Shown: positions 1-64,000 of the stretch, one piece after another | How positions within the stretch are numbered: position 1 is the stretch's first letter | Layout: every line of letters starts with the position of its first letter | Source: Abditibacterium sp. | GTDB taxonomy: Bacteria; Armatimonadota; Abditibacteriia; Abditibacteriales; Abditibacteriaceae | Direction: 5' to 3' | DNA: 64,000 nt | Assembly: GCA_965199495.1 (NCBI GenBank) | Contig: CBDASK010000003.1 | Location: forward strand, 3,968,001-4,032,000 | Program-made: the position numbers and the translations under genes | Notes under the pieces: model-generated | What the model was told of the DNA's origin: nothing | The model's database searches: none | What the model saw: the letters and a program-made list of their open reading frames with translations, nothing else

Positions 1-1275
1 TACGTGACGCGGCCCATCGTGCAAAGCGAGATTCCCAACGCGAGTTTCACGCCGCAGACATTTGGCGATGGTTTGGGCGGGCAAAACGGCGGCGTTGCGC
101 AGGGTTTAATTTATGATAATCCACTGGACGCGCGAATGTCAAAAGGAGAAAGTCGCGCCGTGGCTCCCTCTCCCAGGGTATTTGGGGGGCAGGGCGGCGG
201 TAGCTTTGGCGGCGGTAGCTTTAACGGCCCCGCTGGCCCCGCCGGGCCAATGGGTGCGCGCGACGAGATGTCGCAAATTACCAACATTTCGAGCATCGCG
301 GCGCAGGCCAGCGCCGCCGATGCGGGCGAATTGTTCGTTTACGCGCTCGACCAAAAGCTGACTTTGCCGCACGGCAAAGCGGCGATGGTGCCGATTATTT
401 CGCGCGATGTCGCGGGTGATGCGCTTTCGATTGTCAATAACTTTGGCGGCATCGGCAACCAAGTCGCGCAAAACGGCTTTCGCCTGAAAAACGATTCCGA
501 TTTGCGTTTGAGCGGCGGCCCCATCACGGTTTATCAGGGCGGCATTTACGGCGGCGACGCGCGCTTGGACGGACTTTCGCCGCGCGATTCCAAGCTCATC
601 GCTTATGGCATTGACTTGGATTTGGTCGTCAAGCGCGAAAACGATGAGAACAGCGCGCAGTTGCTGCAAATTATCGCCAACAAAGGCGTGCTGATCCAGC
701 GCTTTCAGAATTTTCTGACGCAAAATTACGCGCTGAAAAACAAAGCCGCCAAAGCCAAAACCGTGTTGCTCCAACAACCAGCCACGTCGGGTTGGGATTT
801 GATTGACGCCAAACAGCGCGACGAGAAATCCACCGAAGGCGACCGTTTCAAAATCGAACTGAAGCCGGGCGAAGCGCGCGATTATCCGATCAAATGGCAG
901 CGCACCACCAGCGAAACCATCGCGATTGGCGATTTCGACTTTGCCAATTTGGATATTTATCTGCGCGACAAGCAAATCGCGCCCGAACTCAAAGCCAAAC
1001 TCGAAATCGTCGGCGCGGCCAAAGCGCGCGTGCAGGATTTGCAACGCCAGATTGACGCGCAAAAAGCCGCGCTCAAAGACATCGGCGAAGATCAGGCGCG
1101 CTTGCGCGAAAACATGAAAGTGCTGGACAAAACCAGCGCTCTCTATCAAACCTATGCCAAAAAGCTGGGCGCACAGGAAGATAAAATCATCGCCATTGAC
1201 GCCGAAATTGATCGTTTGCAGACCGCGCAGAAAACCGCGCAAAGCGCGTTGGACAAAGCGATTGCGGAACTTTAG
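1..1275 (+). CDS. DUF4139-like protein with C-terminal coiled coil (5' end outside window)
   Basis: Frame is open from base 1. GELFVY..LTLPHGKAAMVPI and LSGGPITVY..YGGDA segments resemble DUF4139 proteins; heptad-rich C-terminus. Confidence 0.65.
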   Translation, partial: YVTRPIVQSEIPNASFTPQTFGDGLGGQNGGVAQGLIYDNPLDARMSKGESRAVAPSPRVFGGQGGGSFGGGSFNGPAGPAGPMGARDEMSQITNISSIAAQASAADAGELFVYALDQKLTLPHGKAAMVPIISRDVAGDALSIVNNFGGIGNQVAQNGFRLKNDSDLRLSGGPITVYQGGIYGGDARLDGLSPRDSKLIAYGIDLDLVVKRENDENSAQLLQIIANKGVLIQRFQNFLTQNYALKNKAAKAKTVLLQQPATSGWDLIDAKQRDEKSTEGDRFKIELKPGEARDYPIKWQRTTSETIAIGDFDFANLDIYLRDKQIAPELKAKLEIVGAAKARVQDLQRQIDAQKAALKDIGEDQARLRENMKVLDKTSALYQTYAKKLGAQEDKIIAIDAEIDRLQTAQKTAQSALDKAIAEL

Positions 1276-1282
1276 TATTTGG

Positions 1283-1417
1283 TTGTTCCGTAGAGACAGC
1301 GACCGGGTGCCCTTTGGACGGATGTCTAAAACATAAGGCTTGCTTTAGCGTTATAGAAAATGTAACGTTTTTAGACATCCGCCCAAGGGGCACCCGGTCG
1401 CTGTCTCTACGGAACAA
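1283..1417. repeat. REPIN-like long inverted repeat, family A copy 1
   Basis: ~49-bp arms TTGTTCCGTAGAGACAGCGACCGGGTGCCC..GGATGTCTAAAA and its reverse complement; second copy at 22799-22918. Confidence 0.9.
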
Positions 1418-1491
1418 TCGAGAATCTCTTGCCCATAGCAGCCGCGTCGTCGCAACTTCGCCGTTCGTGTCGCAACGTCGTGCCGTTTAAT

Positions 1492-1660
1492 ATGATGCGT
1501 TATTTATTGTCGGGCATGAAGCGCGGCGATTGCCCGATTTTCTGAGTTTGGTGTGCGATGGCAACAGTTTCAGCAAAGCCTTCGCGCAACAGTTCGGCGC
1601 GAGCGTGCCCGATTTTTATGAGAGTTCGTATCGCGACACCGCGCGCCAATTGAGCGGGGA
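1492..1660 (+). pseudogene. Frameshifted C-terminal remnant of a peptidase MA paralog
   Basis: Restoring one base near 1530 gives MMRYLLSGMKRGDLPDFLSLVCDGNSFSKAFAQQFGASVPDFYESSYRDTARQL, collinear with the end of the next gene ([54 protein letters not shown]). Confidence 0.7.
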
Positions 1661-1757
1661 TGGCTTAAAAAAGGGTTGCAACTCTCTTTCCAAATTTTTG
1701 TCTCTGTTTTGCGAGGATAAGGTTAAAGCCCACTCCGAATTTTTCGGTTAATTACTC

Positions 1758-2909
1758 ATGCGTCGTCTCTGTTTTCTACTTCTGGTATTTTTGATTGGGT
1801 CGGGCGCCGCGCGTGCCCAAACCGATACTTTTTCCCCTGAATTGAAGCCTTTGGCCGAGTTATACGGCAAAGGTTTTAACGATGAATTGGTTTCTAATAT
1901 CAGCGCACGCATTGCAGCCACGGCGCCCGCCGAGCGCCCTCATCCCGATCCACGCCTACTTTATTATCGCGGTTTGGCCTATGCACAAATGGGGTGGCTG
2001 GACGAAGCTAAAGCTGACTTAACGCGCGCGCAAAAAGCGGGTATTTCCAATCTGTGGGGCCAGACCGATGTGAACAAGGAACTGCAATTTCTGGCGCGCC
2101 AGAAAGCGCTGTTGCCACCACATATGGAAGAAGTGCGCGAAGGCGACCGGGTGATTTGCCGGATGTATTACACCGAGATTAACGAGGACACTGCGTTGGT
2201 CAAAGCGACGTTGCGCGATGCTTACCGCATCAACCGCGAGATTTTTGGCACCGATGTTGAGGGGATACCCGTTTACGTCTTTGATGATTTTTCCCAATTT
2301 CTGGCCTTTTATAAGGAGTTGGAAGCGGGCCAAAATCCCGGCAGTTGGGTAGATTGCGTGACCATCGGTGGCAAAAACCTGATCAGTTTGCGCAATGCTC
2401 AGGGCGCTTCGAGGGCCAAGAATAATCCGGGCGAATTCCAAAAAATATTGGTTCACGAGTTCAATCACGCGATGTTTTACCGCCTGATCGGCGCCCGCAA
2501 AGTGCCGGGCTGGTTTACCGAAGGGCTGGCGCAGGTCGCGGGGGCGCGCGAGTATGCAAAGTTCGATGGCGACCAACAAAAAACCTTGAGGCGTATATTC
2601 GCCAACAACGCGCTTTTGTCGTTCGATGAACTTAACGACGAAGCTTCATTCGTTCAACAGGCCGAATCCGGTCTCACACAAAGTCGCGGTCGTGATGCCG
2701 ATTCCGCGCCCGCCCCTTATACGCAGGGTTATAGCATGACGAAATATCTGGTGGATCACGTTTCGCCCGCGCAGTTGCAGAGTTTTCTCAACCGCGTCCG
2801 AGCGTCCGGCGATTTCAAAGCCTCGTTCGACGACGAGTTCGATTTTCCGCTCAAGAAGTTTTACCAATCTTGGGAAATTGATACCGCGAATCAACTCGCA
2901 GTCCAATGA
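1758..2909 (+). CDS. Secreted peptidase MA-family (gluzincin) metallopeptidase with TPR-like segment
   Basis: Signal peptide ending ARA; TPR-like [25 protein letters not shown] zinc motif followed by WFTEGLA. Confidence 0.8.
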
Positions 2910-3094
2910 ACCTTGGGGGACTGCATTTGCGCCATTTAAAGCGTCGAAGTTGCCGCACACTCAACGGTTGTATTGAACTTTCCAAACCTGATAAATCGGT
3001 GTTGCCTCGTTGTTTCTGTATGGCGCGCGCAATTATACAGCAATCGTTGCCAGCCATAACGCGCGAAAACGTAAACTATCGGTCGGTTATTTCC

Positions 3095-4591: not shown

Positions 4592-4601
4592 AGTCAACTC
4601 T

Positions 4602-4643: not shown

Positions 4644-4662
4644 ATTTGTAGCTCCTCGTCAG

Positions 4663-10322: not shown

Positions 10323-10339
10323 GATTATCGAAAGCGCGA

Positions 10340-11434
10340 TTATTTCCGGTTTATCGCCAGTTTGCGCACGCCGTCTACATCGCCCGCCAACAAAGTTTTG
10401 TTGTCGAGCCAGACCAACGCTATTGCTGGATCATCCATTTTTCTGACGCGCTTGCCGGTTACGATATTCCAAATTTCGACTTGGCTGACTTTACGTCCAT
10501 TGATGCCCACCAGCAGTTGCTGATTGGGCGAAATGTCCTGAGCGTCAAAGAAATCCTCGGTTTTCAGAGTGCGCTTGACTTTGAGAGTTCGCGTATCGAA
10601 CACAAAAGTTCCATCTCCCATGTTCGCTCGCCCTTTGCCCGTTTCTAAGGGGGCGCCGTTTCCAATAAACAATTTCGAGTCGCGTGTAAACAGCGGCTCA
10701 TCATAAGGCATGAAATAGGAAAAATCTCGCGATTTGCCGCTCGGAATTGCATAAGCCGTAAAGCCAGAAACACCCTCAAATCCATCCGAAATTAACAAAG
10801 TTCGCCCATCGGGAGAATACGAAATGTGGTTCGCCATTTCGATATACGAATTACGCGTTTTTAGCGGACGGCTCTTCCAAGTTTTCGTATCGAATAGCGG
10901 GATATTGGGAACACCAACCGCGATAGTGCGCCCGTCGGGCGAGTAATCGAGCGGCATGCGTCCTCTATTATCATCGCCGCCGTTGAGCGTGCCCTGATAC
11001 AAAAGTTTTTTGGTTCGCCAGTTCCACACCAGAATTTTGTCATCCGCTCCGGTGATGGCGATCTGTTTCCCATCGGGCGACCACGCCAGAAAGCGCACGC
11101 CACCCGACACTTTCCACCTTTTGACAACGCGATTAGAAGCGCAATCTCGCACCGTAATGAAGCCGTCTATTGAAGCGCTATTGCGCAAAGTTCCCACCAC
11201 CAAATACTTTCGATTCGGCGAAAACTCGACCGCGCGCACCTCGCCCAAATATTCTTCAGGCGTAGGTGTCGGCGTCGGAGCCATCTGTTCGGATTCGACT
11301 TGAGTCGTCGCGCGAGATGTTGGCCGCGAAGTCGGCGTGGCTGCTGTTGTCGCTCGCTTGTCGGTGCAGCCACCGGCAACCAATGCGGCTGTAAACAAAA
11401 TCAAACATAACAAATAGCGCGGCGAAATTTCCAT
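10340..11434 (-). CDS. WD40 beta-propeller lipoprotein (paralog of 9246-10322)
   Basis: Lipobox VAGGC; WSPDG/YSPDG repeats; shares VRDCAxNRVVKxWKV and SDGFEG with its neighbour. Confidence 0.85.
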   Translation of the reverse strand: MEISPRYLLCLILFTAALVAGGCTDKRATTAATPTSRPTSRATTQVESEQMAPTPTPTPEEYLGEVRAVEFSPNRKYLVVGTLRNSASIDGFITVRDCASNRVVKRWKVSGGVRFLAWSPDGKQIAITGADDKILVWNWRTKKLLYQGTLNGGDDNRGRMPLDYSPDGRTIAVGVPNIPLFDTKTWKSRPLKTRNSYIEMANHISYSPDGRTLLISDGFEGVSGFTAYAIPSGKSRDFSYFMPYDEPLFTRDSKLFIGNGAPLETGKGRANMGDGTFVFDTRTLKVKRTLKTEDFFDAQDISPNQQLLVGINGRKVSQVEIWNIVTGKRVRKMDDPAIALVWLDNKTLLAGDVDGVRKLAINRK

Positions 11435-17080: not shown

Positions 17081-18067
17081 ATGTCAACTCAAATCATTCG
17101 CCGCGCCGCCGTGGCTGCTCCGGTTCAACCCAACTCGGCGCCGCGCCATCTCGATGCGATGGACGCGTTCGAGTGGTTTTTGCGCATTGATGTCGCCAAC
17201 GGCGACGCCACGCCCGACACGGTCGAGGCTTACCGGCGCGAAGTCGGCGCGTGGGTCAATTGGTGCGAAAGCCAAGGTTACGATCCGGCGAACATTTCGC
17301 GCCACGAAATCGAGATGTATCGCGAGAGTATGAAAGAGCGCGGGTTCGCGGTTTCAACGCGCGCCTTCAAACTTTCGATTGTGCGGCGCTTTTACGATTC
17401 GGCGGTGCGCCACGGTTTCGCCCAGACCAATCCCGCCGATGGCGTGCGCCCCGGCAAAGATTTGACAGCGCCCGAAGACAAAATGAAAGTCCTCGACCGC
17501 GAATCGCTGACCAAACTCATCGCCGCGATTCCCGGCGACACGCTCGCCGGAACGCGCGACCGCGCCATCATCGGATTGATGGCGCTGCACGGTTTGCGGC
17601 GCATCGAAGTTCACCGATTGGATCATGCGTCGTTGCGCGGCGGCGACAGCGGCAATCCGCATTTGGAAGTGCAGGGCAAAGGCTCCAAGCGCCGTCTGGT
17701 GTATTTGCGGCAAGACACCTTCGAGGCGCTGGAAATTTATCGCCACGCCAAGTTTGAAGCAAATTTGAAAGACGACGGCGCGATTTTCGTTGGCCACGGC
17801 AACAACGGGCGCGGCCAACGTTTGTCGCGTCAGGCGCTCAACGAAATCGTCGCCAAACATTTGAACGCGGCTCATCTAAAAAAATTGGGCGTCAACTGCC
17901 ACGCGCTGCGCCATACTTTTGGCACTTTGTCAGTTGCGGGCGGCGCCAAAATCGAACATCTGCGCGACGCGATGGGCCACGCGCACATTGACACGACCTC
18001 GATTTACGTCAAAGCCGTCGAAAAGCAAAAGCATAATCCGGCCAACTTTATTGATGTCGAATTGTAA
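17081..18067 (+). CDS. Xer-like tyrosine recombinase
   Basis: N-terminal SAM-like domain; catalytic GLRRIE (R), GKGSK (K), HALRH (HxxR), GH..IDTTSIY (H,Y). Confidence 0.92.
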   Translation: MSTQIIRRAAVAAPVQPNSAPRHLDAMDAFEWFLRIDVANGDATPDTVEAYRREVGAWVNWCESQGYDPANISRHEIEMYRESMKERGFAVSTRAFKLSIVRRFYDSAVRHGFAQTNPADGVRPGKDLTAPEDKMKVLDRESLTKLIAAIPGDTLAGTRDRAIIGLMALHGLRRIEVHRLDHASLRGGDSGNPHLEVQGKGSKRRLVYLRQDTFEALEIYRHAKFEANLKDDGAIFVGHGNNGRGQRLSRQALNEIVAKHLNAAHLKKLGVNCHALRHTFGTLSVAGGAKIEHLRDAMGHAHIDTTSIYVKAVEKQKHNPANFIDVEL

Positions 18068-19229: not shown

Positions 19230-20042
19230 ATGTCTCCTCTTCTTCAAGTCACTAATTTAGTCAAACATTTTCCGCTCAAAGGCGACGTTTCGGGCGGCGG
19301 AAGCGGCGTCGTCAAAGCGGTTGATGACGTTTCGTTTTCCATTCATCAAGGCGAAGTTTTCGGCTTGGTCGGCGAATCGGGAAGCGGCAAATCTACGACG
19401 GGCCGTCTGGTTTTGAAACTGATTGAGGCGACTTCGGGCCGCGTGCAGTTCGATGGCAAAGACGTTTATGGCATCGGCAAAACCGAACTGCGCAACCTGC
19501 GCCGCGAAATGCAGATCGTGTTTCAAGACCCGTATGGCGCCTTCAATCCGCGCATGACCGTCGGCAATATCATCGGCGAAGCGCTCGATTTGAAAGAGAT
19601 TTCGCGTTCGCAGCGCAACGCGGCCATCGGTAAATATCTGGAAATGGTGCAGATGCCGCCTGCGATTGCCGGGCGCTATCCGCACGAATTTTCCGGCGGA
19701 CAACGCCAACGCATCGGCATCGCGCGCGCCCTGGCCGTCGAGCCAAAGTTCATCGTCGCCGACGAACCGGTTTCGGCGCTCGACGTTTCGACGCAAGCCG
19801 AAATCGTCAATTTATTATTGGATTTGCAAAAGCGCCTGAACCTGACGATGCTATTTATCTCGCACGATTTGAGCGTGGTGCGCGTCTTATGCGACCGCGT
19901 GGCTGTGATGCAAAACGGCAAGCTCGTCGAGGTAGCCACGGCGGCGCAGTTGTTCGCCGAACCGCAACAAGAATACACGCGCGAACTGTTGGCGGCGGTG
20001 CCAATTCCCGACCCAGCCCGCGCGCGGCGGCGCGCGGCTTAA
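19230..20042 (+). CDS. oppF: Oligopeptide/dipeptide ABC ATP-binding subunit (OppF/DppF)
   Basis: [28 protein letters not shown]. Confidence 0.93.
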
Positions 20043-21652: not shown

Positions 21653-21653
21653 A

Positions 21654-40039: not shown

Positions 40040-40192
40040 AAAAGGTTTGGACGCTTCTAAAACGCAATCGGCGCGCTTATTTCTAATTATGGCAATTGCC
40101 AAAAACGCTTAGTGCAACCGCGAACGCTCGCGCAATTTGCCGCGTAACACGCAACGCGAACGCTGGCACTTTGTCCAGTGGGGCTGAGAACC

Positions 40193-40236
40193 TTGACGTG
40201 ACGGTCTTAGCGCACTATATTCAAGTCACTTGAATA
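40193..40236 (+). promoter_or_regulatory. Sigma70-type promoter with overlapping palindromic operator
   Basis: TTGACG-N17-TATATT (40193-40221); palindrome TATTCAAGT-C-ACTTGAATA (40218-40236). Confidence 0.7.
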
Positions 40237-40252
40237 AAAAGCAAATTTTTCG

Positions 40253-40448
40253 ATGCGCAACGTCCGTTTCCGCATTCGTCCGTTACGCCGTCGGCAAAAA
40301 CTCACCTTGAAAGACGTGCCGCGCAACGCGGTTTCACTGAAAGTTTGCTCTCGAAAATTGAGTCGGCAAAACCACGACGCCACTTGCTACCTTAACGCGC
40401 ATTGCAGCGACGATGGGCGTGTTTGCCGAGCGGTTTGAGACTCCATAA
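40253..40448 (+). pseudogene. Frameshifted XRE-family HTH regulator
   Basis: Repairing two 1-bp deletions (~40319, ~40364) gives IRPLRRRQKLTLKDVAAQRGFTESLLSKIESGKTTTPLATLTRIAATMGV. Confidence 0.8.
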
Positions 40449-40457
40449 AGGAAAAAA

Positions 40458-41450
40458 ATGAAATATCGGATTGCCATTATTGGTTGTGGCGGCGTATCTT
40501 CGATGCACCTCGAAGGCTGTGCGCGCCGCCGCGACCGCGTCGAAGTCGTCGCCGCGTGCGACCCCGATGCGTCGCGTCTCGCTGCAGTGCAGGAGGAATT
40601 TGGCATCGCGCAGGGTTTTGCCACAATCGAAGACCTGCTCGCGGGCGCCGATTTCGATGTGGCGATTGTCTGCACACCGACCAACGTGCGCGAAGCCGTC
40701 GTCGCGACTTTGGCGGCGGCGAAAAAAGCCATTCTGGTCGAAAAACCGTTCGCGTCGTCGCTCGAATCGGGGCAAAAAATGGTCGAAATTTGCGAGAAAA
40801 ACGGTGTTTTGCTCGCGGTTGACCAAAATTTTCGCACCCATTTTCCGTTTCATATCGCCAAAACGCAAATCGCCGCCGGAAGTTTGGGCGCGGTCACGGC
40901 GATTCACCTCCAACACCTTTGTTTTCGCCAGGACAGCGGCTGGCGCACGCGGGAAGAGCGCCACGTCATCGAAATTATGGGCGTGCATTGGCTCGATGGT
41001 TTTCGCTGGATTTTGAATCGTGAGGCGCACAGCGTGACGGCGCAAATCCGCCATTCCAATGCCATCAACTGCGCGGGAGAAACCGATTTGAGCGTGCAAG
41101 TCGCTTTTGAAGGCGGCACTTTTGCGAGCTACGCGGACAGTTTTTCATCGCACTTCAATCGTTGCGAAGCGCTGATTTTGGGCGAACGGGCGACGTTGCA
41201 ACTGGACTACAACGGCGCGACGCTGTTGGAGCGCGGAAAGGCACCGCAGCATTGGGAAAACCCGTTCGCGGGCCAAGGCAAACCCGATGCGGCGTTCGAT
41301 TGCCTGAATCAGCTTTTGGACGCGCTCGAAAACGGCACGCTACCCGGAAATGGTGGGCGTGACAACCTCAAAACTCTGGCGCTGATGGAAGCGGCTTACG
41401 CTTCCGCCGCAAGCGGCGCGACGGTGAATTTGAAGGTGAACGCGTCGTGA
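40458..41450 (+). CDS. Gfo/Idh/MocA oxidoreductase
   Basis: IAIIGCG, ICTP-like VCTP, VEKPF, MGVHWLD. Confidence 0.92.
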   Translation: MKYRIAIIGCGGVSSMHLEGCARRRDRVEVVAACDPDASRLAAVQEEFGIAQGFATIEDLLAGADFDVAIVCTPTNVREAVVATLAAAKKAILVEKPFASSLESGQKMVEICEKNGVLLAVDQNFRTHFPFHIAKTQIAAGSLGAVTAIHLQHLCFRQDSGWRTREERHVIEIMGVHWLDGFRWILNREAHSVTAQIRHSNAINCAGETDLSVQVAFEGGTFASYADSFSSHFNRCEALILGERATLQLDYNGATLLERGKAPQHWENPFAGQGKPDAAFDCLNQLLDALENGTLPGNGGRDNLKTLALMEAAYASAASGATVNLKVNAS

Positions 41451-42220
41451 CAAAACCGCGTTTCGCATTTTCAATTCCAACATATAGTGACGCCGAGCAA
41501 CGCGCGCTCTTCGAGGGTTTTGCAAGCGCCGGATTTGACGGTTTGCAACTCAAAGGCGGCCAATACGCGCGTTATCTGGACGCGCCAGAGCGATTCTTAG
41601 CGGAGTGGGGCGAGTTTGAAGGCGCGCGCGCGGCATTAATTGCCGGCGGGTCGCTCGATGAAAACGGCGTCGCGTCTTTGCAGCGGACTTTTAATTTCGC
41701 GGGGGAAATTGGTGCTGAAATGGTGGTTTTTTGTCACGGACAGGCGCGGGAGACCGTCGGCGACGCGCAAATTCGCGGTTTCGCGCGCCAACTGTCCGAA
41801 TTGGGCGCCGAGGCTGCGACGCGGGGCGTGAAATTGTCGCTGCATAATCATTTCGACAATCCGGTGATGCACCGCGCCGATTTCGACACGTTCTTTGGCT
41901 CGATTGAATTAGGAACCGTCGGTTTGACGCTCGACACCGCGCACCTACAAAAATCCGGTGTTTTCGACATCGCGGGCATAGTGCGCGATTTTGACGTTTT
42001 TCTCGACAACGTGCATCTCAAAGATTTCGCGGCGGGCCAATTCCAAACTCTGGGACGCGGCGAAATCGCGTTCGAGGCTGTTTTTACCGCACTGCATGAT
42101 CTCAATTTCGCGGGTTGGCTGTGCGCCGACGAAGAAAGCGATACGGGCCTTGAAGCCTCGTTGCGCGCCTCGTTCGCGTTTCTCGAAGCGGGCTGGAACT
42201 CTGCAAGGACAAATTTATGA
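41447..42220 (+). CDS. Sugar phosphate isomerase/epimerase (IolE/xylose isomerase-like TIM barrel)
   Basis: LHNH, LDTAH, VHLKD, LGRGEIAF. Confidence 0.88.
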   Translation: MTKPRFAFSIPTYSDAEQRALFEGFASAGFDGLQLKGGQYARYLDAPERFLAEWGEFEGARAALIAGGSLDENGVASLQRTFNFAGEIGAEMVVFCHGQARETVGDAQIRGFARQLSELGAEAATRGVKLSLHNHFDNPVMHRADFDTFFGSIELGTVGLTLDTAHLQKSGVFDIAGIVRDFDVFLDNVHLKDFAAGQFQTLGRGEIAFEAVFTALHDLNFAGWLCADEESDTGLEASLRASFAFLEAGWNSARTNL

Positions 42221-42576
42221 TCGCCAATTTAATCACCAAAACAACAGAAGGCGAAGTCCTCGACCTCGATTGGGGCCGCATCGTCTGGAAAACCGCGCGC
42301 GCTCTCGGTAACTCGCAAACCATGACGTTTGGCCTCGTCACCATCAAAGCGGGTCACGCCAATCCGCGCCATCGCCACCCCAATTGCGACGAAATTTTGC
42401 ACCTGATTTCCGGCGTAATCGAACACAGTCTGGGCGACGAAACGATGGAAATGAACGCGGGCGACACAATTTCCATTCCCACCGGCCTCTGGCACAACGC
42501 TCGGAACTTGGGCGAGCAAGACGCCCAAATGACAATCTGTTTTTCCTCCGCCGACCGCCAAACAGAAAACGAATGA
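42217..42576 (+). CDS. Cupin domain protein
   Basis: HRHPNCDE, GDTISIPTGLWH. Confidence 0.9.
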   Translation: MIANLITKTTEGEVLDLDWGRIVWKTARALGNSQTMTFGLVTIKAGHANPRHRHPNCDEILHLISGVIEHSLGDETMEMNAGDTISIPTGLWHNARNLGEQDAQMTICFSSADRQTENE

Positions 42577-42661
42577 GAGCATCGAAAACACAATAGACAC
42601 CACGGGCGCAATGAATCATGGCGCCGAAGTGGCGAATTATCGCTTCAGAGCGGCGAGTGCG

Positions 42662-43192
42662 TCAAATCAAACGCGCACGCTCGCGCAGTTTGGCGCGTAG
42701 AACGCGCGGCGTGAGAACATCGTCGGTCGTAATCGAGCGAATCGCGGCCCAGAGAATCGCGGTTAGGTTGAGCAGAAATAGGGCAATAAGTGGTAGCACG
42801 CCGAAAAATTTTATCGTCGTATACCCATAGAGATATAAGAGGCCAATAATATGGTTTGGTATGGAAAAAAGCAGCGCATAAAAGAAGCACCAAAAGATAT
42901 TCTGTGGCAGTATGAGTTTTTTGTCTCCTGCGACATTGCGCACTTTATTCCAAATTGCCAGCACTAAACCTACGGTAATGCCAAAAATAATTCCTGTCGT
43001 ATAGCTTGAAAGAAAAACTGTAGAAATCTGTTCTACAAGCAGATTTTGCATTGTGGAAACGCGCGGATTCGTGGTGGAAACAGCCGCCGTCACTCCAACA
43101 TTCACGACAACAGCGAATTGCGCGAAGCAGTAAGTAAGAAAGAACGCGCCACAAATTCCAAGCACCAAAGGAAATACCAAAAATCGTTTCAT
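42662..43192 (-). CDS. Hypothetical integral membrane protein (lower GC)
   Basis: About 4 hydrophobic segments; TGATG coupling with the upstream gene. Confidence 0.7.
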   Translation of the reverse strand: MKRFLVFPLVLGICGAFFLTYCFAQFAVVVNVGVTAAVSTTNPRVSTMQNLLVEQISTVFLSSYTTGIIFGITVGLVLAIWNKVRNVAGDKKLILPQNIFWCFFYALLFSIPNHIIGLLYLYGYTTIKFFGVLPLIALFLLNLTAILWAAIRSITTDDVLTPRVLRAKLRERARLI

Positions 43193-43869
43193 CAATCCAA
43201 TTTCTCCGCCATCATTGTGCGCGCCAACTCGCGGTCGCGCTCGCTTTCCCAAATCCAATTTTCCAACGGCGGCGCCGCGATAATCTGCTTTAACGTGCTG
43301 CGCGCTTTGGCCGGTTGATTATCGGCGATAAGCGCGTCGGCATAATAAAGCAACGTCGTGGAATTATCGGGCGAAATCTGCAAAGCGCGCTCGAAAAACG
43401 CGAGCGCGTAATCGAGGTTGCCGCCTAAAACTAACGGCTTGAGATGCGTGACGCGGCCCAGAACGCGGAGCGGCCCGGCGAAATGATAAGTCTCGTCAAT
43501 TTGCGCGGCGCGATTGAGTTGTTTTTGCGCGCGTCCCAGCGCCAAGCCCGCCGCGAGTTTGCCGCTCAAACGGGCGGCTTCGAGCGCGCAGGTCGCCGAC
43601 CAAAACGCGGCTTCGACGCGGTCGCCTTCCAACAATTGCGCAGCGCGAGCTTGTTCGGCGCCTCCCGCAAATAGCGCACGCGCTGCGTCAGGATTTTCAG
43701 TTTGCTCTTGCATCGCGCGAAAATGAGCGAAGCGCGAAGCGCGCCAGAGCCAACCATAATTGTCGGGTTTACCCGGCTTGATTTGCGCCAGCAACTCGTT
43801 TTGCAACGCGTTCAAATTTTCCGGCACATGGCGATTGGCGTAAAGCGCATCGAATTCGGCGAAAGTCAC
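43192..43869 (-). CDS. TPR protein resembling the TRAP transporter TatT component
   Basis: AGPLRVLGRV..PLVLGGNLDYALAFFERALQISPDN; start uncertain. Confidence 0.6.
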   Translation of the reverse strand: MTFAEFDALYANRHVPENLNALQNELLAQIKPGKPDNYGWLWRASRFAHFRAMQEQTENPDAARALFAGGAEQARAAQLLEGDRVEAAFWSATCALEAARLSGKLAAGLALGRAQKQLNRAAQIDETYHFAGPLRVLGRVTHLKPLVLGGNLDYALAFFERALQISPDNSTTLLYYADALIADNQPAKARSTLKQIIAAPPLENWIWESERDRELARTMMAEKLD

Positions 43870-43937
43870 GGGGAAAGGATAGAAGATAAAGGCGTCAAAA
43901 TGAAAGGGCACCGCTCAAATTTGATAAATTATATTCA

Positions 43938-44360
43938 ATGCAAAATTCACCTCAACCGCCGCTTCCGCCGCCCAACAATACGTGGGGCGGCTCGTCCATC
44001 GGTTCGTCGCCTTCGATGTCGCCGAGCGAAGAGAAAAACTGGGCCGTCGCCACGCATTTGGCTTCGCTTTCCGGTTATCTGGGCATTCCGTTCGGTCACA
44101 TTCTGGGGCCGCTCGTCTGTTGGCTGATGAAAAAGGACAGCTCCAACTTTCTCGATGAAGTCGGCAAAGAAACCGTCAATTACAACATTAGCATTATTAT
44201 TTGGTTCATCGTTTGTATTCCGCTCTGCTTTCTCATCATCGGCTTTTTTATGTTGGGCGCGCTGGCAATAATGGACATCATCGTCACCATCATGGCCGCC
44301 GTGGCTGCATCGAACGGCCAGCAATATAAATATCCGTTGACGATTCGATTCATTTCGTAA
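43938..44360 (+). CDS. DUF4870 membrane protein
   Basis: EKNWAVATHLA, GPLVCWL, GKETVNY, YKYPLTIRF. Confidence 0.88.
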   Translation: MQNSPQPPLPPPNNTWGGSSIGSSPSMSPSEEKNWAVATHLASLSGYLGIPFGHILGPLVCWLMKKDSSNFLDEVGKETVNYNISIIIWFIVCIPLCFLIIGFFMLGALAIMDIIVTIMAAVAASNGQQYKYPLTIRFIS

Positions 44361-54700: not shown

Positions 54701-55552
54701 CTAATCGACAAATTCCACATCAACGCGGTGCGGGATAATGCCCGCCTCGAAGCCGCGATCTAACAATAATTTTACAGCTTTGCGACCATCGTCGCCGTAA
54801 TCGAGCGTGCGCGCGTTGACATACATTCCGACGAATTCATCGGCCTGTTTTATGTCGGTTTCCAAACCGCGCGCGTATTGCATGGCGTATTCCAATGCTT
54901 CTTCGCGATGGTTGAGCGAGTATTCGATGCTCTGGCGCAACAATTGGGAAACGCGTTTTTGCAAATCGGGATCGAGGTCGCGCCGAATCGCGTTGCCGCC
55001 GAGCGGAAGCGGCAAACCGCCGGTTTGCTCGCCCCACCATTGCCCGAAGTCCGCCGCCAGATGCACGCCCTCGGCGCCATAGGTTAATTGTCCCTCGTGA
55101 ATCAGCACGCCTGCTGGCACCGCGCCAGCAGCCACGGCGGGCAAAATCTCGTCGAACGCCATCGCCTGAACCGGCGCGTCGGGCGCCCACAAACGCAAAG
55201 TTAAATAGGCGCTGGTGCGCGGGCCGGGGTGCGCGATGGTCAATTTCTTCGCTTCATCAACCGAAACTTTCTGGTGCGTCACCAAGCGCGGGCCATAACC
55301 CTTTTCGCCCGGCTCGCCCATCGAGGCGCCATGTCCCATCAGCGCATATTTGTCGGCCAAATAGGCGTAACCGTGAATGGACAGCGCCGTCACTTCGTAG
55401 GTGCCGTGAGCGGCGGCGTTATTGAGCGTTTCGATGTCTTTGAGGACGTGGTGAAATTCGATGTCGCCGGAATCAATTTTGCCTTCGGCGAGCGCGTAAT
55501 GCATGAACGCATCGTCCGAATCGGGCGAGTGCGCAACGGTAATCTGTGGCAT
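54701..55552 (-). CDS. mqnD: 1,4-dihydroxy-6-naphthoate synthase (futalosine pathway)
   Basis: VAHSPDSDDAFM, DIETLN, IHEGQLTY, LPLPLG, MYVN. Confidence 0.92.
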   Translation of the reverse strand: MPQITVAHSPDSDDAFMHYALAEGKIDSGDIEFHHVLKDIETLNNAAAHGTYEVTALSIHGYAYLADKYALMGHGASMGEPGEKGYGPRLVTHQKVSVDEAKKLTIAHPGPRTSAYLTLRLWAPDAPVQAMAFDEILPAVAAGAVPAGVLIHEGQLTYGAEGVHLAADFGQWWGEQTGGLPLPLGGNAIRRDLDPDLQKRVSQLLRQSIEYSLNHREEALEYAMQYARGLETDIKQADEFVGMYVNARTLDYGDDGRKAVKLLLDRGFEAGIIPHRVDVEFVD

Positions 55553-58261: not shown

Positions 58262-61200
58262 TTAAACTTTCAACTTCACCAACAAATCTTTCGCTTCGAC
58301 CGTCTCGCCAACAGCCACGGCGATTGACTCAATCGTGCCATCGCTGGGCGAATTGACGACCGTGAGCATTTTCATCGCTTCGATTGTCAGCAATTTATCG
58401 CCTTTGCTCACTTTCTTGCCGCTCGAAACCGCGATTTGCGTCACCATGCCGGGAATCGGCGCGCCGATTTCGGCGGCATTTGAAGCGTCGGCTTTGAGGC
58501 GCACTTTCTTTTCGCCCGCCAACGATTTGTCGTCCACCAACACGCTGCGCGCGATGCCGTTCAACTCGAAGTTGACCGCGCGATTGCCTTCCTTGTTCGC
58601 CTCGCCGATGTTGATGAGTTTGATAATCAGCGTTTTGCCCGCTTCAATCGAAACCGCGATCTCTTCGCCCGGCTGCAATCCGTAAAAATAGGCGGGCGTC
58701 GGCAAAACCGAAACGTCGCCGTAATTCTCGACAAACGCCGCGAAATCGCGCTGCACTTGCGGATACATCAAATGAGAATACAATGCGTCGTCATCAATTT
58801 CGTGATCTTGTTCGGCGCTGAGTTGCGCGCGCAACGCTTCCAAATCGAGCGGTTCCAAATCGGCGCCTGGACGGTGAACCAAAGGTTCTTCGCCGTTCAA
58901 AACGATGCGCTGCAATTCGAGTGGCCAGCCGCCAATCGGCTGGCCCAATCCGCCGCGCATCATGTCAATGACGCTTTCGGGAAACGAAATTTCGCCCGGT
59001 TCCAGCGCCAACACATCGCCCGCTTTCATGCCGCGCGAAACCAAAAACATCGTCATATCGCCGACGACTTTGCTCGATGGCGTAACTTTCACGATGTCGC
59101 CGAACAGTTGATTGACCTCGGCATAAGTGCGCGCAATTTCGCGCCAGCGATGGCCCAATCCCATGCCGTTGGCCTGTTCTTTGAGGTTGGTGAATTGTCC
59201 GCCGGGCATTTCGTGTTCGTAAACCTCGGCGGTTCCAGCGCGGTCGGTGGTGTTGAACGGCGTGTAAAACGGCAAAACCGCTTCCCAATAATCCGATAAT
59301 TCCTGCAACGCTTCCATATCTAACCCGGTATCGCGCGGCGTGTGCTGCAAGGCAGCCACGACGCTGTTCAAATTCGGCTGCGACGTGCCGCCGCTCATCG
59401 AAGCGAGCGCCAAATCCACCACATCTACGCCCGCGTCACTGGCGCGTAACACCGAAGCGGCGGATGTGCCCGACGTATCGTGCGTATGAAAATGAACCGG
59501 CAAACCGATTTCATTTCGCAGAGTTTCGACTAATTTAAAGGCGGCATACGGACGGCAAAGTCCGGCCATATCTTTGATCGCCAAAATATGCGCGCCGCGT
59601 TTTTCCAGTTGCTTCGCCATGTCCACATAATATTGCAACGGATATTTATCGCGCGCCGGGTCGAGAATATCGCCGGTATAGCAAATCGCCGCTTCGCAAA
59701 CCGCGCCGGTTTCGCCGATGGCGTCCATCGCGACTTTCAGGTTAGGCAAGTAATTCAACGAATCGAAAACGCGGAAAATATCAATGCCCGATTCCGCCGA
59801 ATGTTTGACGAAACCGCTCACGACGTTATCGGGATAATTGGAGTAGCCGACAGCGTTGGAGCCGCGAAACAGCATCTGAAAACAGATATTAGGAATCGCT
59901 TCGCGCAGCAACACCAAACGTTCCCACGGGTCTTCGCGCCCGAATCTCATCGAAGTATCGAAAGTCGCGCCGCCCCACATTTCGAGCGAGAACAGACCCG
60001 GCAAACGCGCGGCGATGGCATCAGCCACGCGCAGCATATCGTAGGTGCGCACGCGTGTGGCGAGCAACGATTGGTGCGCGTCGCGTAACGTCGTGTCGGT
60101 AACGAGCAATCGTTCGGTTTCGCGCGTCCACTGCGCGAATTTCGTCGGCCCCTCGCGGCGCAAACGTTGGCGCGTGCCGATTTCGTCGGTCGGCGCGGGC
60201 GGCGTGGCTGCTGGTGCCTTGACGGTTGCGAACGGTTTTTCCGGTTTCCAATTCTTCGCGTTGGCGTTGCCATTCACGATTACATCGCCCAGAAAATTGA
60301 GCAAACGCGTGGCGCGGTCGCGGCGCGGCGTAAATTCAAACAGTTCGGGCGAGGTATCAATCAACGTCGTCGTCGCTTCACCGGCGCGGAAAATCGGATG
60401 CTCGATGACGTTCTCGATAAACGGGATATTGGTCTTGACGCCGCGCACGCGAAACTCGCGTAGCGCCCGATCCAAACGCGAAATCGCCGTCTCAAATGTC
60501 GGCGCCGACGCGGTGACTTTCACCAACAGCGAATCGTAAAACGGCGTAATCACCGCGCCCGAATCGGCCATGCCGCCATCCAAACGAATGCCGAAACCGG
60601 CGGCGCTGCGATAGGCCAAAATTTTTCCGTAATCGGGCGCGAAGCCTTTTTCTGGGTCTTCGGTCGTGATGCGCGCCTGAATCGCGTAACCGTTGCGTGG
60701 AATGTTTTCTTGCGTCGGCAAACCCAATTCGGGCGAATTGAGGGCAAAACCCTGCGCCACCAAAATCTGACTTCTCACCAAGTCAATGCCGGTAATTTGC
60801 TCGGTGACGGTATGCTCGACCTGGATGCGCGGGTTCATTTCGATGAAGAACCATTCGCGCGCGTCCACATCCACCAAAAATTCGACGGTTCCAGCGTTAT
60901 CGTAGCCGATGCTCGCCGCCAAATCGCGCGCGGCCTCGCACATTTGCGCGCGCGTCGTCTCGTCCAAGTTCACGCTGGGCGCGATTTCGACGACTTTCTG
61001 ATGGCGCCGTTGCACGCTGCAATCGCGTTCGTAAAGGTGCAAAACGTTGCCATGACTGTCGCCCAAAATCTGCACTTCGATATGCTTGGCGCGCCCGACA
61101 TATCGCTCCAGAAAAACGCTGCTGTCGCCAAACGCGTTCTGCGCCTCGTTTTGCGCTTCGGCCAACAATGCGGGCAAATCTTCGGCTTTGTGAACCACGC

Positions 61201-61702: not shown

Positions 61703-61798
61703 ATTTCGGGGGACGTAATAGATTTTAACTGAGGTTTGCTCGCGCGGGGCACAGTAGAACGCAAGGGGCAGATTATCGGAGAAACTGAACTGCAAACG

Positions 61799-62797: not shown

Positions 62798-62805
62798 TGG
62801 CACGC

Positions 62806-63564
62806 TCACAGCAAATCTAATTTCGCCAACCGCCGCGCAAACATCTCCAAACCCGCCGAATGCGACGGCGTGCGCGTGTGTTCGATGATATTCGACAAAT
62901 AATCCTCGACAATCGCGGGCGAAAGCTGCGGCGGCAACGTTTCGGCGGCGACGAGTTGCGCGATATTCGCTTTGCCGTCGTCGCGCGCTTGATTGAGAAT
63001 TTGCGCGAGTTCGTCGCGGTTTTCCAATCCGTCGCGCGCAGCCCACGTTGCGAAGATGAACGATAAACCGGTGAACTCACGCCACTCGTTCGCCAAGTCG
63101 TAAACGTGCATTTTGCCCGGATTCTGCACCGCGATTAACGCCGGATCGCCGATTAACAACGCGGCGTCGGCGGCGCGCAGCATCGCAGCCACGTCGGGCG
63201 CGTGATGAATCAATCGCGGATTTAAATGGTAAAAATCGCGCGCGATGACCTGCGTTAAAGCCACGCTCGAATGCGAACTGGTATCGAGTGCGATGGATTG
63301 GACGTTTTCGATTTCGACGTTGGAAAACAGCATCACCGAACGGACGCGGCCCGTCGCGCCAACGATGGCATCGCCCAATAATCCGTCGCCGACACCGCGC
63401 AGATGGTCAACGACTGGCATGAGCGCGGCGTCGTAAATTCCGTTTGTTAAACCTTCGGCCAAACGCGCGGGCAGGGCAGGAATAATACAAATATCATCGC
63501 GCTCGCGTAAAGTCGCGTAGAGCGGGAGCGCGTTGAGAAAAGAGACGACGCCTAATCGGAACAT
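62806..63564 (-). CDS. mqnA: Chorismate dehydratase (futalosine pathway)
   Basis: LGVVSFLNALPL, GRVRSV, SSHSSVAL, LLIGDPAL, DLANEWREFTGL. Confidence 0.92.
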   Translation of the reverse strand: MFRLGVVSFLNALPLYATLRERDDICIIPALPARLAEGLTNGIYDAALMPVVDHLRGVGDGLLGDAIVGATGRVRSVMLFSNVEIENVQSIALDTSSHSSVALTQVIARDFYHLNPRLIHHAPDVAAMLRAADAALLIGDPALIAVQNPGKMHVYDLANEWREFTGLSFIFATWAARDGLENRDELAQILNQARDDGKANIAQLVAAETLPPQLSPAIVEDYLSNIIEHTRTPSHSAGLEMFARRLAKLDLL

Positions 63565-63585
63565 GGAATAAATTACTGACGCACG

Positions 63586-63616
63586 AAAAAGCGCGCCGAC
63601 ATCGGTTGGCGCGCTT
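63586..63616 (-). terminator. Intrinsic terminator
   Basis: AAGCGCGCCAAC..GTCGGCGCGCTTTTT on the minus strand after the last gene. Confidence 0.7.
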
Positions 63617-63631
63617 GCGATTTTCGGATAA

Positions 63632-64000
63632 CTAATCCGCGTTTTCCGCTTCCTGCGTTGGCTTGGCCTTCGCCGTGGCTGCTCTTTTGGCCGGAGCTTT
63701 CTTCGCGGCTTTGGGCGCGGACTCGTTGGCCCGCACCGAACGCTTCGTTATTTGGCGCTCACAGATTTTCTATGTCACTGGTCAGTTGTTGCATCTGGCG
63801 TTTTAGCGCGACAAGTTCTGCTTTGAGTCGAGCATTTTCTGCGGCTTCTCCCGCGTAATCGGATTGGCGGCGGCGGCGTTCGAGTTGGGGCGGGCGGTTG
63901 AGACGCAATCGTTCGATCCACAAAACGCCTTCGGGCATTAATCCTTCGAGAGTGCCATCTTGAAGTGCGCGAATGCGCAATGTTAAATTATCGGTTCGCG
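63632..64000 (-). CDS. 3' part of a coiled-coil protein with K/A-rich tail; apparent 1-bp frameshift near 63761
   Basis: ..QLTSDIENL* continues in the +1 frame as ERQITKRSVRANESAPKAAKKAPAKRAATAKAKPTQEAENAD* up to the terminator; 5' end outside window. Confidence 0.55.

Follow-up and report, generated by a model that had tools for sequence, protein, structure and literature searches.

The question raised by this locus is whether a short word scattered over both strands is incidental to the sequences around it, or whether it is a signal maintained and read at the level of DNA. The locus is a 64,000-nt stretch of an Abditibacterium chromosome (hereafter the window). An earlier note on this DNA had counted at least 69 exact copies of a core heptamer (on the + strand, AGCCACG 37 times and CGTGGCT 32 times), and had proposed an uptake or HIP-like signal. 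The count is exact, and every example coordinate given with it is correct. The over-representation is likewise real: 100 dinucleotide-preserving shuffles of the window contained a mean of 7.9 copies (sd 2.8, maximum 17), and 0 of the 100 reached 69. The enrichment is genome-wide, and no peculiarity of the window.

Abundance, strand balance and spacing of the word

Among the 69 heptamers of the window, 20 extend to GCCGTGGCTG, 33 to AGCCACG[G/C]CG and 16 to a full 12-mer, GCAGCCACG[G/C]CG (Table 1, in which genic placement follows our own gene calls); a single inverted pair of cores lies within 60 nt. The source genome (G000) holds 4,553 core heptamers in 4.81 Mb, with a chromosomal density of 0.96 per kb, and 2,237 10-mers on the chromosome. 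The 12-mer occurs 1,047 times (690 + 357), and its two forms are the commonest 12-mers of the genome. The heptamer had at first been taken as the unit; the word proper is 12 nt long and has dialects that differ between species.

Table 1. Core words, full 12-mers and related features of the window.
Feature	Position	Strand	Remarks
Core heptamer AGCCACG, 69 dispersed copies	159..63680	37 on +, 32 on -	~1.08 per kb; 59/69 inside called genes
Full 12-mer GCAGCCACG[G/C]CG	1914..1925	+	
Full 12-mer GCAGCCACG[G/C]CG	11333..11344	-	
Full 12-mer GCAGCCACG[G/C]CG	17107..17118	-	
Full 12-mer GCAGCCACG[G/C]CG	24140..24151	-	
Full 12-mer GCAGCCACG[G/C]CG	24327..24338	+	
Full 12-mer GCAGCCACG[G/C]CG	25568..25579	-	
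Full 12-mer GCAGCCACG[G/C]CG	30390..30401	-	
Full 12-mer GCAGCCACG[G/C]CG	31145..31156	+	
Full 12-mer GCAGCCACG[G/C]CG	31746..31757	-	
Full 12-mer GCAGCCACG[G/C]CG	32193..32204	+	
Full 12-mer GCAGCCACG[G/C]CG	33173..33184	+	
Full 12-mer GCAGCCACG[G/C]CG	37811..37822	+	
Full 12-mer GCAGCCACG[G/C]CG	44297..44308	-	
Full 12-mer GCAGCCACG[G/C]CG	55128..55139	+	
Full 12-mer GCAGCCACG[G/C]CG	60200..60211	-	
Full 12-mer GCAGCCACG[G/C]CG	63671..63682	-	
Loosely spaced inverted core pair, starts 36 nt apart	19898..19940		Within ABC-transporter ATPase gene 19230-20042
Longest window stretch without core, 5.4 kb	38854..44299		Among 31 chromosomal gaps >5 kb

The word is spread evenly. Its spacing has a CV of 0.848; randomly placed sites, merged in the same way, give 0.945 +/- 0.015. 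The observed value is the lowest among 73 7-mers of similar abundance (median 1.04). Every 20-kb interval holds at least 6 word sites, and core-free gaps of more than 5 kb number 31 on the chromosome, as opposed to the 37 expected if cores were placed at random. Copies are uniformly distributed along genes, and their density does not vary with codon-usage quintile.

Orientation is equally balanced, with 530 forward and 517 reverse 12-mers in G000 and balanced strand counts in 20 of 20 chromosome bins; abundance, strand symmetry and even spacing are established properties of the word. This balance bears on a possible role of the word as a polar signal of the Chi or KOPS type, guiding recombination or the segregation of chromosomes. 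Chi in E. coli has a copy number of similar magnitude, and the word is over-represented on the chromosome and missing from the phage contig, as such a signal might be. However, its leading-strand share is 50.4% when the origin is placed by skew, and never exceeds 51.4% whatever origin is assumed, while the KOPS-like GGGCAGG, used as a positive control in the same test, is 73% polar. Strong replichore polarity had been named as the mark of a Chi or KOPS signal, and the word has none even though replichores are detectable. The polarity test refutes a polar signal unless the assembly is grossly scrambled, and the clear polarity of GGGCAGG argues against such scrambling; the chance that this reading is correct is minimal.

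A word of DNA rather than of protein

Most 12-mers of G000 are genic (942 of 1,047), and 102 are fully intergenic. Protein motifs, codon-pair bias or base composition might in principle generate the word as a side effect, and two alanine-rich frames, AAT[A/P] and [A/G]VAA, do hold 81% of the genic 12-mers. The earlier note had described a variety of reading frames, and in this it was mistaken. When synonymous codons were shuffled within each gene (20 shuffles, protein and codon usage kept), however, only ~15.5 genic 12-mers were expected against the 942 observed, a loss of 98%, and ~730 genic heptamers against 4,060. The enrichment that the note took for a DNA signal therefore survives a codon-preserving shuffle. 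The same is true of a sister species, G004, in which a 400-kb sample contains 59 copies of that genome's own 12-mer and 0.56 after synonymous shuffling (50 shuffles).

Codon choice is consistent with this result. Exactly this 12-mer encodes 278 of 362 AATA peptides (77%) and 129 of 193 AATP peptides, where codon usage predicts a share of ~0.4-0.5%, and for Ala these codings employ GCA, a rare codon. AATA itself is 2.5-4 times commoner as a peptide than its own permutations. Relatives of similar composition and with similar proteins show background counts. The shuffle, the relatives' counts and the codon string shared by most AATA peptides refute an origin in protein, codon or composition effects, which the intergenic 12-mers also contradict, and we give that origin almost no weight. 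The placement of the word at silent sites is established.

Its absence from mobile DNA is established as well. A 64.6-kb tailed-phage contig and a 24.7-kb plasmid-like contig, co-assembled with the chromosome and 89 kb together, contain 0 12-mers where ~20 would be expected at chromosomal density, and their core densities are 0.19 and 0.32 per kb, respectively. The longest chromosomal stretches without the core include defence and restriction-modification islands. The comparison of core with accessory DNA that the earlier note had proposed came out as expected of an uptake or HIP-like signal, with low density on both contigs and in islands.

Dialects, silent gains and inverted pairs

The word is confined to three sister species of the soil bacterium Abditibacterium, in which it occurs about once per kb of chromosome. 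Of 31 genomes of the class, and of 251 sampled across the phylum, the same three show enrichment of the core, and these (G000, G011 and G004) form one clade (TGT tree, support 92/99). All share the core CAGCCACG.C. G011 has the same flanks as G000, GCAGCCACG[G/C]CG, whereas G004 has its own dialect, GACACCAGCCACGTCC, with 97 copies in 400 kb (by extrapolation, roughly 1,200 in the genome). G004 also retains 250 copies of the G000-type 12-mer, against at most 28 in every other genome searched; the G004 16-mer is found twice in G000. At shared cores, flanks differ by dialect in 11 of 55 cases.

Between G000 and G011, 158 of 241 cores (65.6%) are conserved, compared with 40.7% for all 7-mers (rank 17 of 1,488); between G000 and G004, conservation is 28.5% against a background of 32.4%, and so is not better. 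Dialects and above-background conservation are both established observations. At sites with the core in G000 alone, the G004 sequence is mostly CGCCACG or GGCCACG, a synonymous Ala change.

Gains of the word are single substitutions at silent sites, which could also reflect a neutral drive: sequence-specific repair, mismatch correction or methylation-linked (VSP-like) conversion of near-matches, with the word as a functionless by-product. Many DNA methyltransferases are present in all genomes tested, and G004 carries a true Vsr match adjoining a C5 methylase on a small contig. But neither G000 nor G011 has a Vsr match over the family cut-off, and the differences at gained sites fall at several positions and include transitions and transversions rather than one specific mismatch type. 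One-mismatch neighbours are not unusually unstable (37.5% conserved vs 40.7% overall). Under a purely mutational drive, spacing should be random, yet the word is spaced more evenly than any other of the 73 comparable ones; nor does such a drive predict a specificity of 12-16 nt or the excess of inverted pairs described below. We consider it improbable.

Close pairs of the word are mostly inverted: within 45 nt of 3,083 CAGCCACG sites, an exact partner is found in inverted orientation for 176 and in direct orientation for 8, a 22-fold excess, and tight inverted pairs are ~10 times enriched at preferred spacings. Inverted pairs, which the earlier note had suggested looking for at terminators, are present, and hairpin pairs can be regarded as established; their location, based on crude gene calls throughout, is more mixed. 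In G000, 68 of 90 tight inverted pairs lie inside genes and 18 of 90 between them, and 14 of 40 tight divergent pairs are intergenic GC-rich hairpins. Intergenic pairs favour 3' ends only weakly: of the 21 in G000, 14 are in tandem spacers, 6 in convergent and 1 in a divergent one; a T-run follows in 8 of 21 there and in 16 of 32 in G004, where 6 of 32 lie in divergent spacers. In known uptake systems, by contrast, inverted repeats are said to be mostly terminator-located (bioRxiv 10.1101/2025.10.24.684340).

G004 differs in the format of its pairs. There, 88 of 183 ACCAGCCACG copies are paired convergently, and 26 of these 44 pairs have a 35-nt spacing, with an inner stem and loop that have a family consensus and occur in either orientation. 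About half of the copies in G004 lie in a fixed-spacing hairpin repeat that looks like a REP/REPIN-type element, and the G004 12-mer is 6 times denser in intergenic DNA. These features, together with the Y1 transposase genes and a small GIY-YIG gene found in these genomes, would suit a selfish hairpin repeat as the source of the word, whether of the NTS/Ssn type or a REP/REPIN with its RAYT-type Y1 transposase, with intragenic singles as decayed or captured half-elements. Yet the 942 genic 12-mers of G000 are in frame and made by point substitution rather than insertion, and the G004 element is almost absent from G000. If one mismatch is allowed, partners are about as frequent in inverted as in direct orientation (130 vs 119), so the single copies are truly single. 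Nor do the candidate genes accompany the word: the six Y1 loci of G000 have no flanking word or doublets beyond background, and the eight of G004 none clearly so; genomes that lack the word have no fewer Y1 genes; and the GIY-YIG genes, present in G000, G004 and also in the word-less G006, have no flanking repeats. We consider a selfish origin for the word as a whole improbable.

Possible readers and comparison with known systems

The properties above may best be explained if the word is a DNA-level self tag of the three-species clade, with a function that most probably resembles that of the uptake sequences known from Neisseriaceae and Pasteurellaceae; this is our leading reading, and a tentative one. 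Both the involvement of uptake and the nature of the reader are inferred. A surface or periplasmic reader in the competence or type IV pilus machinery would prefer DNA with CAGCCACG and species-specific flanks; word-bearing fragments would be taken up and recombined more often, and the word would therefore spread by point substitution at tolerant, mostly synonymous positions until it reached ~1 per kb. Several observations count against this reading: tight inverted pairs of G000 are mostly intragenic, about half of the G004 copies belong to a hairpin repeat, HIP1 has most of the same statistical features, and core conservation between G000 and G004 does not exceed background. The proposal of an uptake or HIP-like signal made at the outset holds in that the word is shuffle-proof, unpolar, paired and scarce on mobile DNA; its varied frames and heptamer unit do not stand.

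The gene content is compatible with uptake without pointing to it. ComEC, ComEA and DprA are present, G000 has 8 secretin matches, and a PilB-PilT-PilC-PilD cluster includes four pilin-like genes; but G006 and G012, both without the word, have competence and pilus genes just as well, so that these do not discriminate. No homologue of ComP, the Neisseria receptor, turned up: a search with PF16732 had no match better than E = 1 in G000, G004, G011, G006 or G012. The expectation of ComP/ComE-type pilus genes is therefore borne out for the pilus and competence genes and not for ComP. A search of literature listings found no paper on transformation or competence in this phylum. It is possible, though less likely than not, that the clade represents a third, independently evolved DNA-uptake-specificity system, in a phylum without known competence, and one caught mid dialect switch: in G004, GACACCAGCCACGTCC would be accumulating as ~250 copies of the earlier GCAGCCACG[G/C]CG persist as relics, and its hairpin repeat, with two word copies, would resemble a mobile element hitch-hiking on the host's uptake preference.

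The word may instead be a HIP1-like one, read by another chromosomal process and kept by selection on DNA, unrelated to uptake; nucleoid organisation, a self/foreign check by defence or repair, and replication or segregation bookkeeping are examples. We regard this as somewhat unlikely. A structural role would be in keeping with the even spacing, a self mark for a defence system with the word's absence from the phage and plasmid-like contigs, and no uptake receptor was found in the ComP (PF16732) search. Against this, the word is non-palindromic where HIP1 is a palindrome, no candidate reader was found, and we know of no nucleoid or defence system with thousands of 12-16-nt asymmetric sites. 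Hyper-abundance, silent codon placement, above-background conservation and lineage variants are common to HIP1 as PMC5861425 describes it; the turnover of dialects among sister species seen here, in which copies of the old dialect survive, speaks against this reading, having until now been described for uptake sequences (PMC3630211).

Compared with known systems, the word shares with Chi and KOPS its over-representation on the chromosome, but those oligomers are strongly strand-polar. The G004 intergenic inverted doublet, with its fixed spacing, long hairpin and family consensus, resembles REPINs, and the G004 family is, like REP/REPIN elements, an extragenic palindrome. The same doublet form recalls NTS, as presented in PMC11893778. 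REP/REPIN and NTS elements are extragenic and flank a cognate gene, however, whereas 90% of G000 copies are single and intragenic, and Y1 and small GIY-YIG genes here lack a flanking word. HIP1 of cyanobacteria (GCGATCGC), for which PMC5861425 reports most of the same statistical features and an unknown function, is likewise a hyper-abundant oligomer, mostly genic, conserved beyond background, with lineage variants and, in that account, no known reader; it is a phylum-wide palindrome, whereas the Abditibacterium word is asymmetric, 12-16 nt long and limited to 3 of 251 sampled genomes.

The DUS of Neisseriaceae is a 12-mer, AT-GCCGTCTGAA, with dialects, read by the minor pilin ComP (as outlined in PMC3630211). 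The Abditibacterium word is unrelated in sequence to DUS and to the uptake signal sequences (USS) of Pasteurellaceae, including AT-GCCGTCTGAA with its functional CTG core; it belongs to another phylum (Abditibacteriota/Armatimonadota), without a ComP homologue (PF16732) in the genomes searched, and to a narrower clade, three species as opposed to a family. Most tight inverted pairs of G000 are intragenic, and the G004 dialect lies partly on a fixed-format hairpin repeat. The likenesses, so far as these systems are described in PMC3630211 and bioRxiv 10.1101/2025.10.24.684340, are these: a short, non-palindromic word at ~1 per kb on both strands, intragenic copies in a few low-cost reading frames, inverted pairs that in some cases form hairpins between genes, scarcity in recently acquired DNA, and species dialects around a conserved core that follow phylogeny, with one genome carrying relics of another dialect.

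The word and its coding context

The count of AGCCACG/CGTGGCT given in the earlier note is exact: the window (C3:3,968,001–4,032,000, in a 4.81-Mb assembly of three contigs) holds 69 copies (37 in the + and 32 in the − orientation), and the example positions listed there are correct. The excess claimed for them is also borne out, as 100 dinucleotide-preserving shuffles of the window give a mean of 7.9 and a maximum of 17. Among these cores, 20/69 extend to GCCGTGGCTG, 33/69 to AGCCACG[G/C]CG, and 16/69 to the 12-mer GCAGCCACG[G/C]CG. The whole assembly of this Abditibacterium sp. (G000) contains 4,553 heptamers (2,263 forward, 2,290 reverse); the 4.72-Mb chromosome carries 0.96 per kb, the two small contigs 0.32 and 0.19. 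The flank consensus is (A)GC-AGCCACG-[G/C]-C-G, and the top 12-mers of the genome are GCAGCCACGGCG (690 copies) and GCAGCCACGCCG (357 copies). A maximal-order Markov model, the k-mer check proposed earlier, returns AGCCAC as the most over-represented hexamer of the genome (z about 60).

The gene content of the window is of the housekeeping kind (Mqo, RNase E/G, trpC/D/G, the glycine cleavage system, pyruvate carboxylase, futalosine-pathway genes, and oligopeptide ABC transport). Among the relatives of its TGT (tRNA-guanine transglycosylase), by which the window is assigned to Abditibacterium, the closest records are 95% and 93% identical, the remainder 84% or lower; some records put the phylum of Abditibacterium, Abditibacteriota, inside Armatimonadota. 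Literature searches with the exact word strings gave incidental matches only, none in the sense of a genomic word, and no such word appears, among the matches listed, in literature naming Abditibacterium or in literature pairing Armatimonadetes with natural competence.

Gene calls for G000 are home-made and crude (long ORFs and an iterated codon model), yielding 3,411 genes and 82% coding sequence. Synonymous codons were shuffled 20 times within each gene, leaving protein sequences and per-gene codon usage unchanged; 942 genic 12-mers are observed versus about 15.5 after shuffling, and 4,060 genic heptamers versus about 730. The enrichment thus survives the codon-preserving control that the earlier note had set against its own claim. 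The same note had argued that no single protein motif explains copies lying in varied frames. The shuffle upholds the first part of that statement but the second needs correction, since 81% of genic 12-mers fall in two frames: GCA GCC ACG GCG/CCG, encoding AAT[A/P] (407 copies), and the reverse strand read as [A/G]VAA (357 copies). The exact 12-mer spells 278 of 362 AATA and 129 of 193 AATP peptides, where codon usage predicts about 0.4–0.5%, and peptides encoded in this way employ the rare codon GCA. AATA is 2.5–4 times commoner than its permutations in G000, and the word has therefore marked the proteome. Words are spread uniformly along genes, at a density that does not change with codon-usage quintile. 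An artefact of protein, codon, or composition is ruled out by the synonymous shuffle, the AATA/AATP codon choice, and the background counts in relatives.

Placement along the chromosome

The strand balance noticed in the window extends to the chromosome, where forward and reverse counts are even in each of 20 bins. With the origin near 1.91 Mb, a placement that rests on the cumulative GC-skew minimum, 50.4% of heptamers lie on the leading strand, and at most 51.4% whatever origin is assumed; the positive control GGGCAGG/GGCAGGG reaches 72–73%. Because the heptamer lacks polarity although the replichores are detectable, Chi/KOPS-type signals, which the earlier note had expected to betray themselves by strong replichore bias, are excluded. 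GGGCAGG itself is a KOPS-like polar word, which suggests for this phylum a signal of the FtsK-orienting type near in sequence to that of E. coli. Other chromosomal repeats of G000 include the 19-nt GTTTTAATCGGGTCTTGTG (131 copies; its sub-words 62–66% strand-polar) and repeats built around TAAATCGGCGTCT and ACGCGATAAATCGG (about 88–129 copies).

Heptamer spacing has a CV of 0.848 versus 0.945 ± 0.015 for randomly placed sites handled in the same way, the lowest among 73 7-mers of similar abundance (median 1.04). Inter-site distances of 60–300 nt and 3–6 kb are depleted and those of 0.5–2 kb enriched, and no 20-kb window holds fewer than 6 sites; the few long gaps between cores include those in the table. 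The comparison of core and accessory DNA suggested earlier shows a deficit in the latter: the two small contigs are without any 12-mer, against about 20 expected at chromosomal density. One (C2, 64.6 kb) is the genome of a tailed phage and encodes terminase, head protease, major head, tape measure, and tail proteins, along with Mu Gam-like and RecT-like ones; the other (C1, 24.7 kb) is plasmid-like and carries genes for an anti-restriction protein and a serine invertase/resolvase.

Close pairs are asymmetric. Adjacent pairs within 60 nt number 168 inverted and 30 direct, where random placement would give about 127 of either kind (about 254 altogether), with inverted-pair peaks at 11–14 nt (convergent) and 15–16 nt (divergent) that reach roughly ten times chance per distance. 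The 8-mer CAGCCACG has an exact inverted partner within 45 nt at 176 of 3,083 sites and a direct one at 8. One-mismatch partners are equal in both orientations (130 inverted vs. 119 direct), so a site either belongs to a perfect hairpin pair or stands truly alone, as about 94% do. The pair asymmetry, like the even spacing and the long specificity, sits poorly with a purely neutral repair drive, which we consider improbable. Tight pairs (20 nt or less; n = 90) lie inside called genes in 68 cases, between genes in 18, and across a gene edge in 4; 14 of the 18 intergenic ones are of the divergent type, with the appearance of GC-rich stem-loops with variable loops. The earlier note had proposed a check for inverted pairs at terminators. 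Intergenic pairs are present, but their placement at gene ends, on crude gene calls, is only weakly terminator-like: the spacers of 21 intergenic pairs are convergent in 6 cases, tandem in 14, and divergent in 1, with a T-run nearby in 8/21. A terminator role for the intergenic pairs is no more than a weak trend.

Locations of features in the window, on the G000 chromosome contig C3, and in G004
Feature	Location	Strand	Remarks
Two adjacent WD40 beta-propeller genes	window 9246-11434	-	
DDE transposase fragment	window 11572-12336	+	
Tyrosine recombinase	window 17081-18067	+	XerC/D-like or integrase
Uma2-family putative endonuclease	window 56769-57374	+	adjoins tgt
DprA gene	C3:4,035,558-4,036,160		3.5 kb past window end
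Type IV pilus gene cluster, complete (locus L061)	C3:861,000-877,000		PilB with MshEN domain, PilT (TIGR01420, 482 bits), PilC, prepilin peptidase PilD; four pilin-like genes (308, 618, 316, 403 aa); 1,366-aa protein without family match
Long core gap	C3, 69.6-78.3 kb		
Long core gap	C3, 437-446 kb		
Long core gap	C3, 470-479 kb		
Cluster of long core gaps	C3, 1.12-1.26 Mb		restriction-modification-type genes
Long core gap	C3, 1.915-1.923 Mb		contains C5 methylase
Stretch of about 200 bp with long inverted arms	G004, L002:1620-1850		arms with CTCCGGGAGAGGGT; bracketed by divergent pair of G004 word
Tandem hexamer array (GCGCTG)n	G004, L002:9247-9330		at least 14 units

Carriers, dialects, and site turnover

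Apart from G000, each species is represented by a single genome, mostly a metagenome bin (79–94% complete in the genus, 63–97% across the class). The heptamer is enriched in 3/31 genomes of the class: G000 (4,553) and two congeners, G011 (4,174) and G004 (4,165). The remaining genomes have 0.1–0.25 heptamers per kb, below their own reversed-pattern control. Across 251 genomes sampled in the phylum, CAGCCACGNC has 2,178–2,735 copies in the three carriers and 382 or fewer in the others. The carriers form a clade on the TGT tree, a single-gene tree, with support 92/99.

Flanks were sampled over 400 kb each of G011 (4.6-Mb genome) and G004 (5.0-Mb genome). Those of G011 equal those of G000; the G004 word differs and is longer, (C)GACACCAGCCACGTCC(T), its 16-mer occurring 97 times in the 400 kb and only twice in G000. 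The G000-type 12-mer has 250 copies in G004 and 28 or fewer in any non-carrier. Within genes, the G004 12-mer is observed 59 times versus 0.56 after synonymous shuffling (about 100-fold; frames TPATS and DVAG), and its intergenic density is 6 times the genic. Convergent pairs take up 88 of 183 ACCAGCCACG copies in G004, and 26 of 44 such pairs have 35-nt spacing; they constitute long hairpins in which a family consensus, present in either orientation, covers inner stem and loop, and the outer stems are often complementary too. This fixed-spacing family implies that part of the word load in G004 is carried by a REP/REPIN-like repeat. A selfish hairpin element accounts in this way for part of G004 but leaves G000 unexplained, and is an improbable reading of the word. 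G004 has other repeats besides. The 14-mer CTCCGGGAGAGGGT has 24 copies in G000, on both strands, and the G004 stretch that bears it may represent a second, MITE-like repeat family. Arrays of (GCGCTG)n are frequent in G004, with 14–16-mers of this repeat at 58–61 copies in the 400-kb sample.

Alignments to G000 (blastn) cover 211 kb of G011 and 225 kb of G004, with identities of 84.8% and 80.5%, respectively. At aligned positions, G000 and G011 have 158 cores in common, with 83 in G000 only and 45 in G011 only; 65.6% of G000 cores are kept, versus 40.7% for all 7-mers and 41.5% for 7-mers of the same composition, ranking the core 17th of 1,488 words (n of at least 40). For G004 the numbers are 65 common, 163 G000-only, and 54 G004-only, and conservation above background was not found between these two genomes (28.5% vs. 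32.4%). At G000-only cores G004 mostly reads CGCCACG or GGCCACG, a synonymous difference in which the preceding Ala codon changes to the rare GCA. Among 55 classifiable cores common to G000 and G004, 11 have flanks in each species' own dialect and 26 have partial G000-type flanks in both. In a small, 7-kb alignment to the non-carrier G006, G000 cores are present at 0/10 positions. These comparisons indicate that sites were gained through point substitutions once the clade had formed, that they go on being maintained within a dialect, and that the G004 dialect is the derived one.

Candidate readers and known systems

The earlier note had proposed a search for competence and pilus genes, which succeeded for the machinery (ComEC, ComEA, DprA, and a pilus cluster) but not for the receptor: a ComP-type protein (ComP_DUS domain) was not found in the three carriers or in the non-carriers G006 and G012. 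ComEC, ComEA, DprA, and secretins (6–8 matches per carrier genome) are equally present in these non-carriers. The 618-aa and 316-aa pilin-like proteins of the pilus cluster are genus-wide and fast-evolving, with identities to G000 of 57% and 82%, respectively, in G011, 47% and 64% in G004, and about 32–47% elsewhere. Because the prepilin-type N-terminal (DUF1559-like) family is very large, counting 49 matches in G000 (as many as about 150 in 7–8-Mb relatives), no single receptor candidate emerges among the pilins. Judged by its genes, transformation machinery exists in G000, and nothing observed links it to the word.

Repair and methylation genes were also compared. Vsr has a true match in G004 only, a weak sub-threshold match in G000, and none in G011. 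On a small G004 contig (G004:C5, loci L059 and L077) the Vsr gene has as neighbors a C5 DNA methyltransferase gene and a weak match to GIY-YIG; with no word copy in 2.5 kb, this locus looks like a mobile methylase-repair module. DNA methyltransferases (PF01555, PF02384, PF00145) have many matches in carriers and non-carriers, with no obvious carrier-only pattern at family level. A RAYT/REP link is unsupported: Y1 transposases occur in 5/5 genomes tested, with more in non-carriers, and word doublets flanking Y1 genes were not found beyond background at 6 G000 and 8 G004 loci. Nor is an Ssn/NTS link supported, as the small GIY-YIG gene is without flanking repeats and occurs in the non-carrier G006 as well.

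It is possible, though on balance doubtful, that the word serves a reader unrelated to uptake, as a counterpart of cyanobacterial HIP1. This is the main rival to an uptake-like role because HIP1, itself unexplained, is reported to have most of the same statistics (PMC5861425). Were the word instead an uptake signal, the system would be a young one—three species only, non-carrying sister species as controls, and visible dialect replacement—and would allow dating of the word's origin, a search for gene gain at the clade's root, and a test of molecular drive. One preprint describes sequence-specific recognition of self-DNA before uptake in two families only, both Proteobacteria, and presents the origin of such words, dialect switching, and proteome effects as still debated (bioRxiv 10.1101/2025.10.24.684340). 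If it is not an uptake signal, the word would be an asymmetric counterpart of HIP1 in a much simpler phylogenetic setting. In practice, it offers a compact marker by which foreign sequence can be distinguished from native, both in these genomes and in metagenome bins.

We tentatively rank first the reading of the word as an uptake-sequence-like self tag, because its properties match those of DUS dialects and of DUS/USS generally. Its sequence is unrelated to theirs, ComP was not found, and the uptake role is one that we infer; for these reasons the word is, on present analysis, not assignable to the DUS or USS family. The likeness lies in its behavior: about one word per kb, strand symmetry, even spacing, and silent positions in cheap frames; inverted hairpin pairs; absence from phage, plasmid-like contig, and islands; and above-background conservation, with dialects that share a conserved core and agree with phylogeny. 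It is by such properties that the DUS dialects of Neisseriaceae were recognized (PMC3630211), and matching properties are summarized for DUS and USS in the preprint (bioRxiv 10.1101/2025.10.24.684340).
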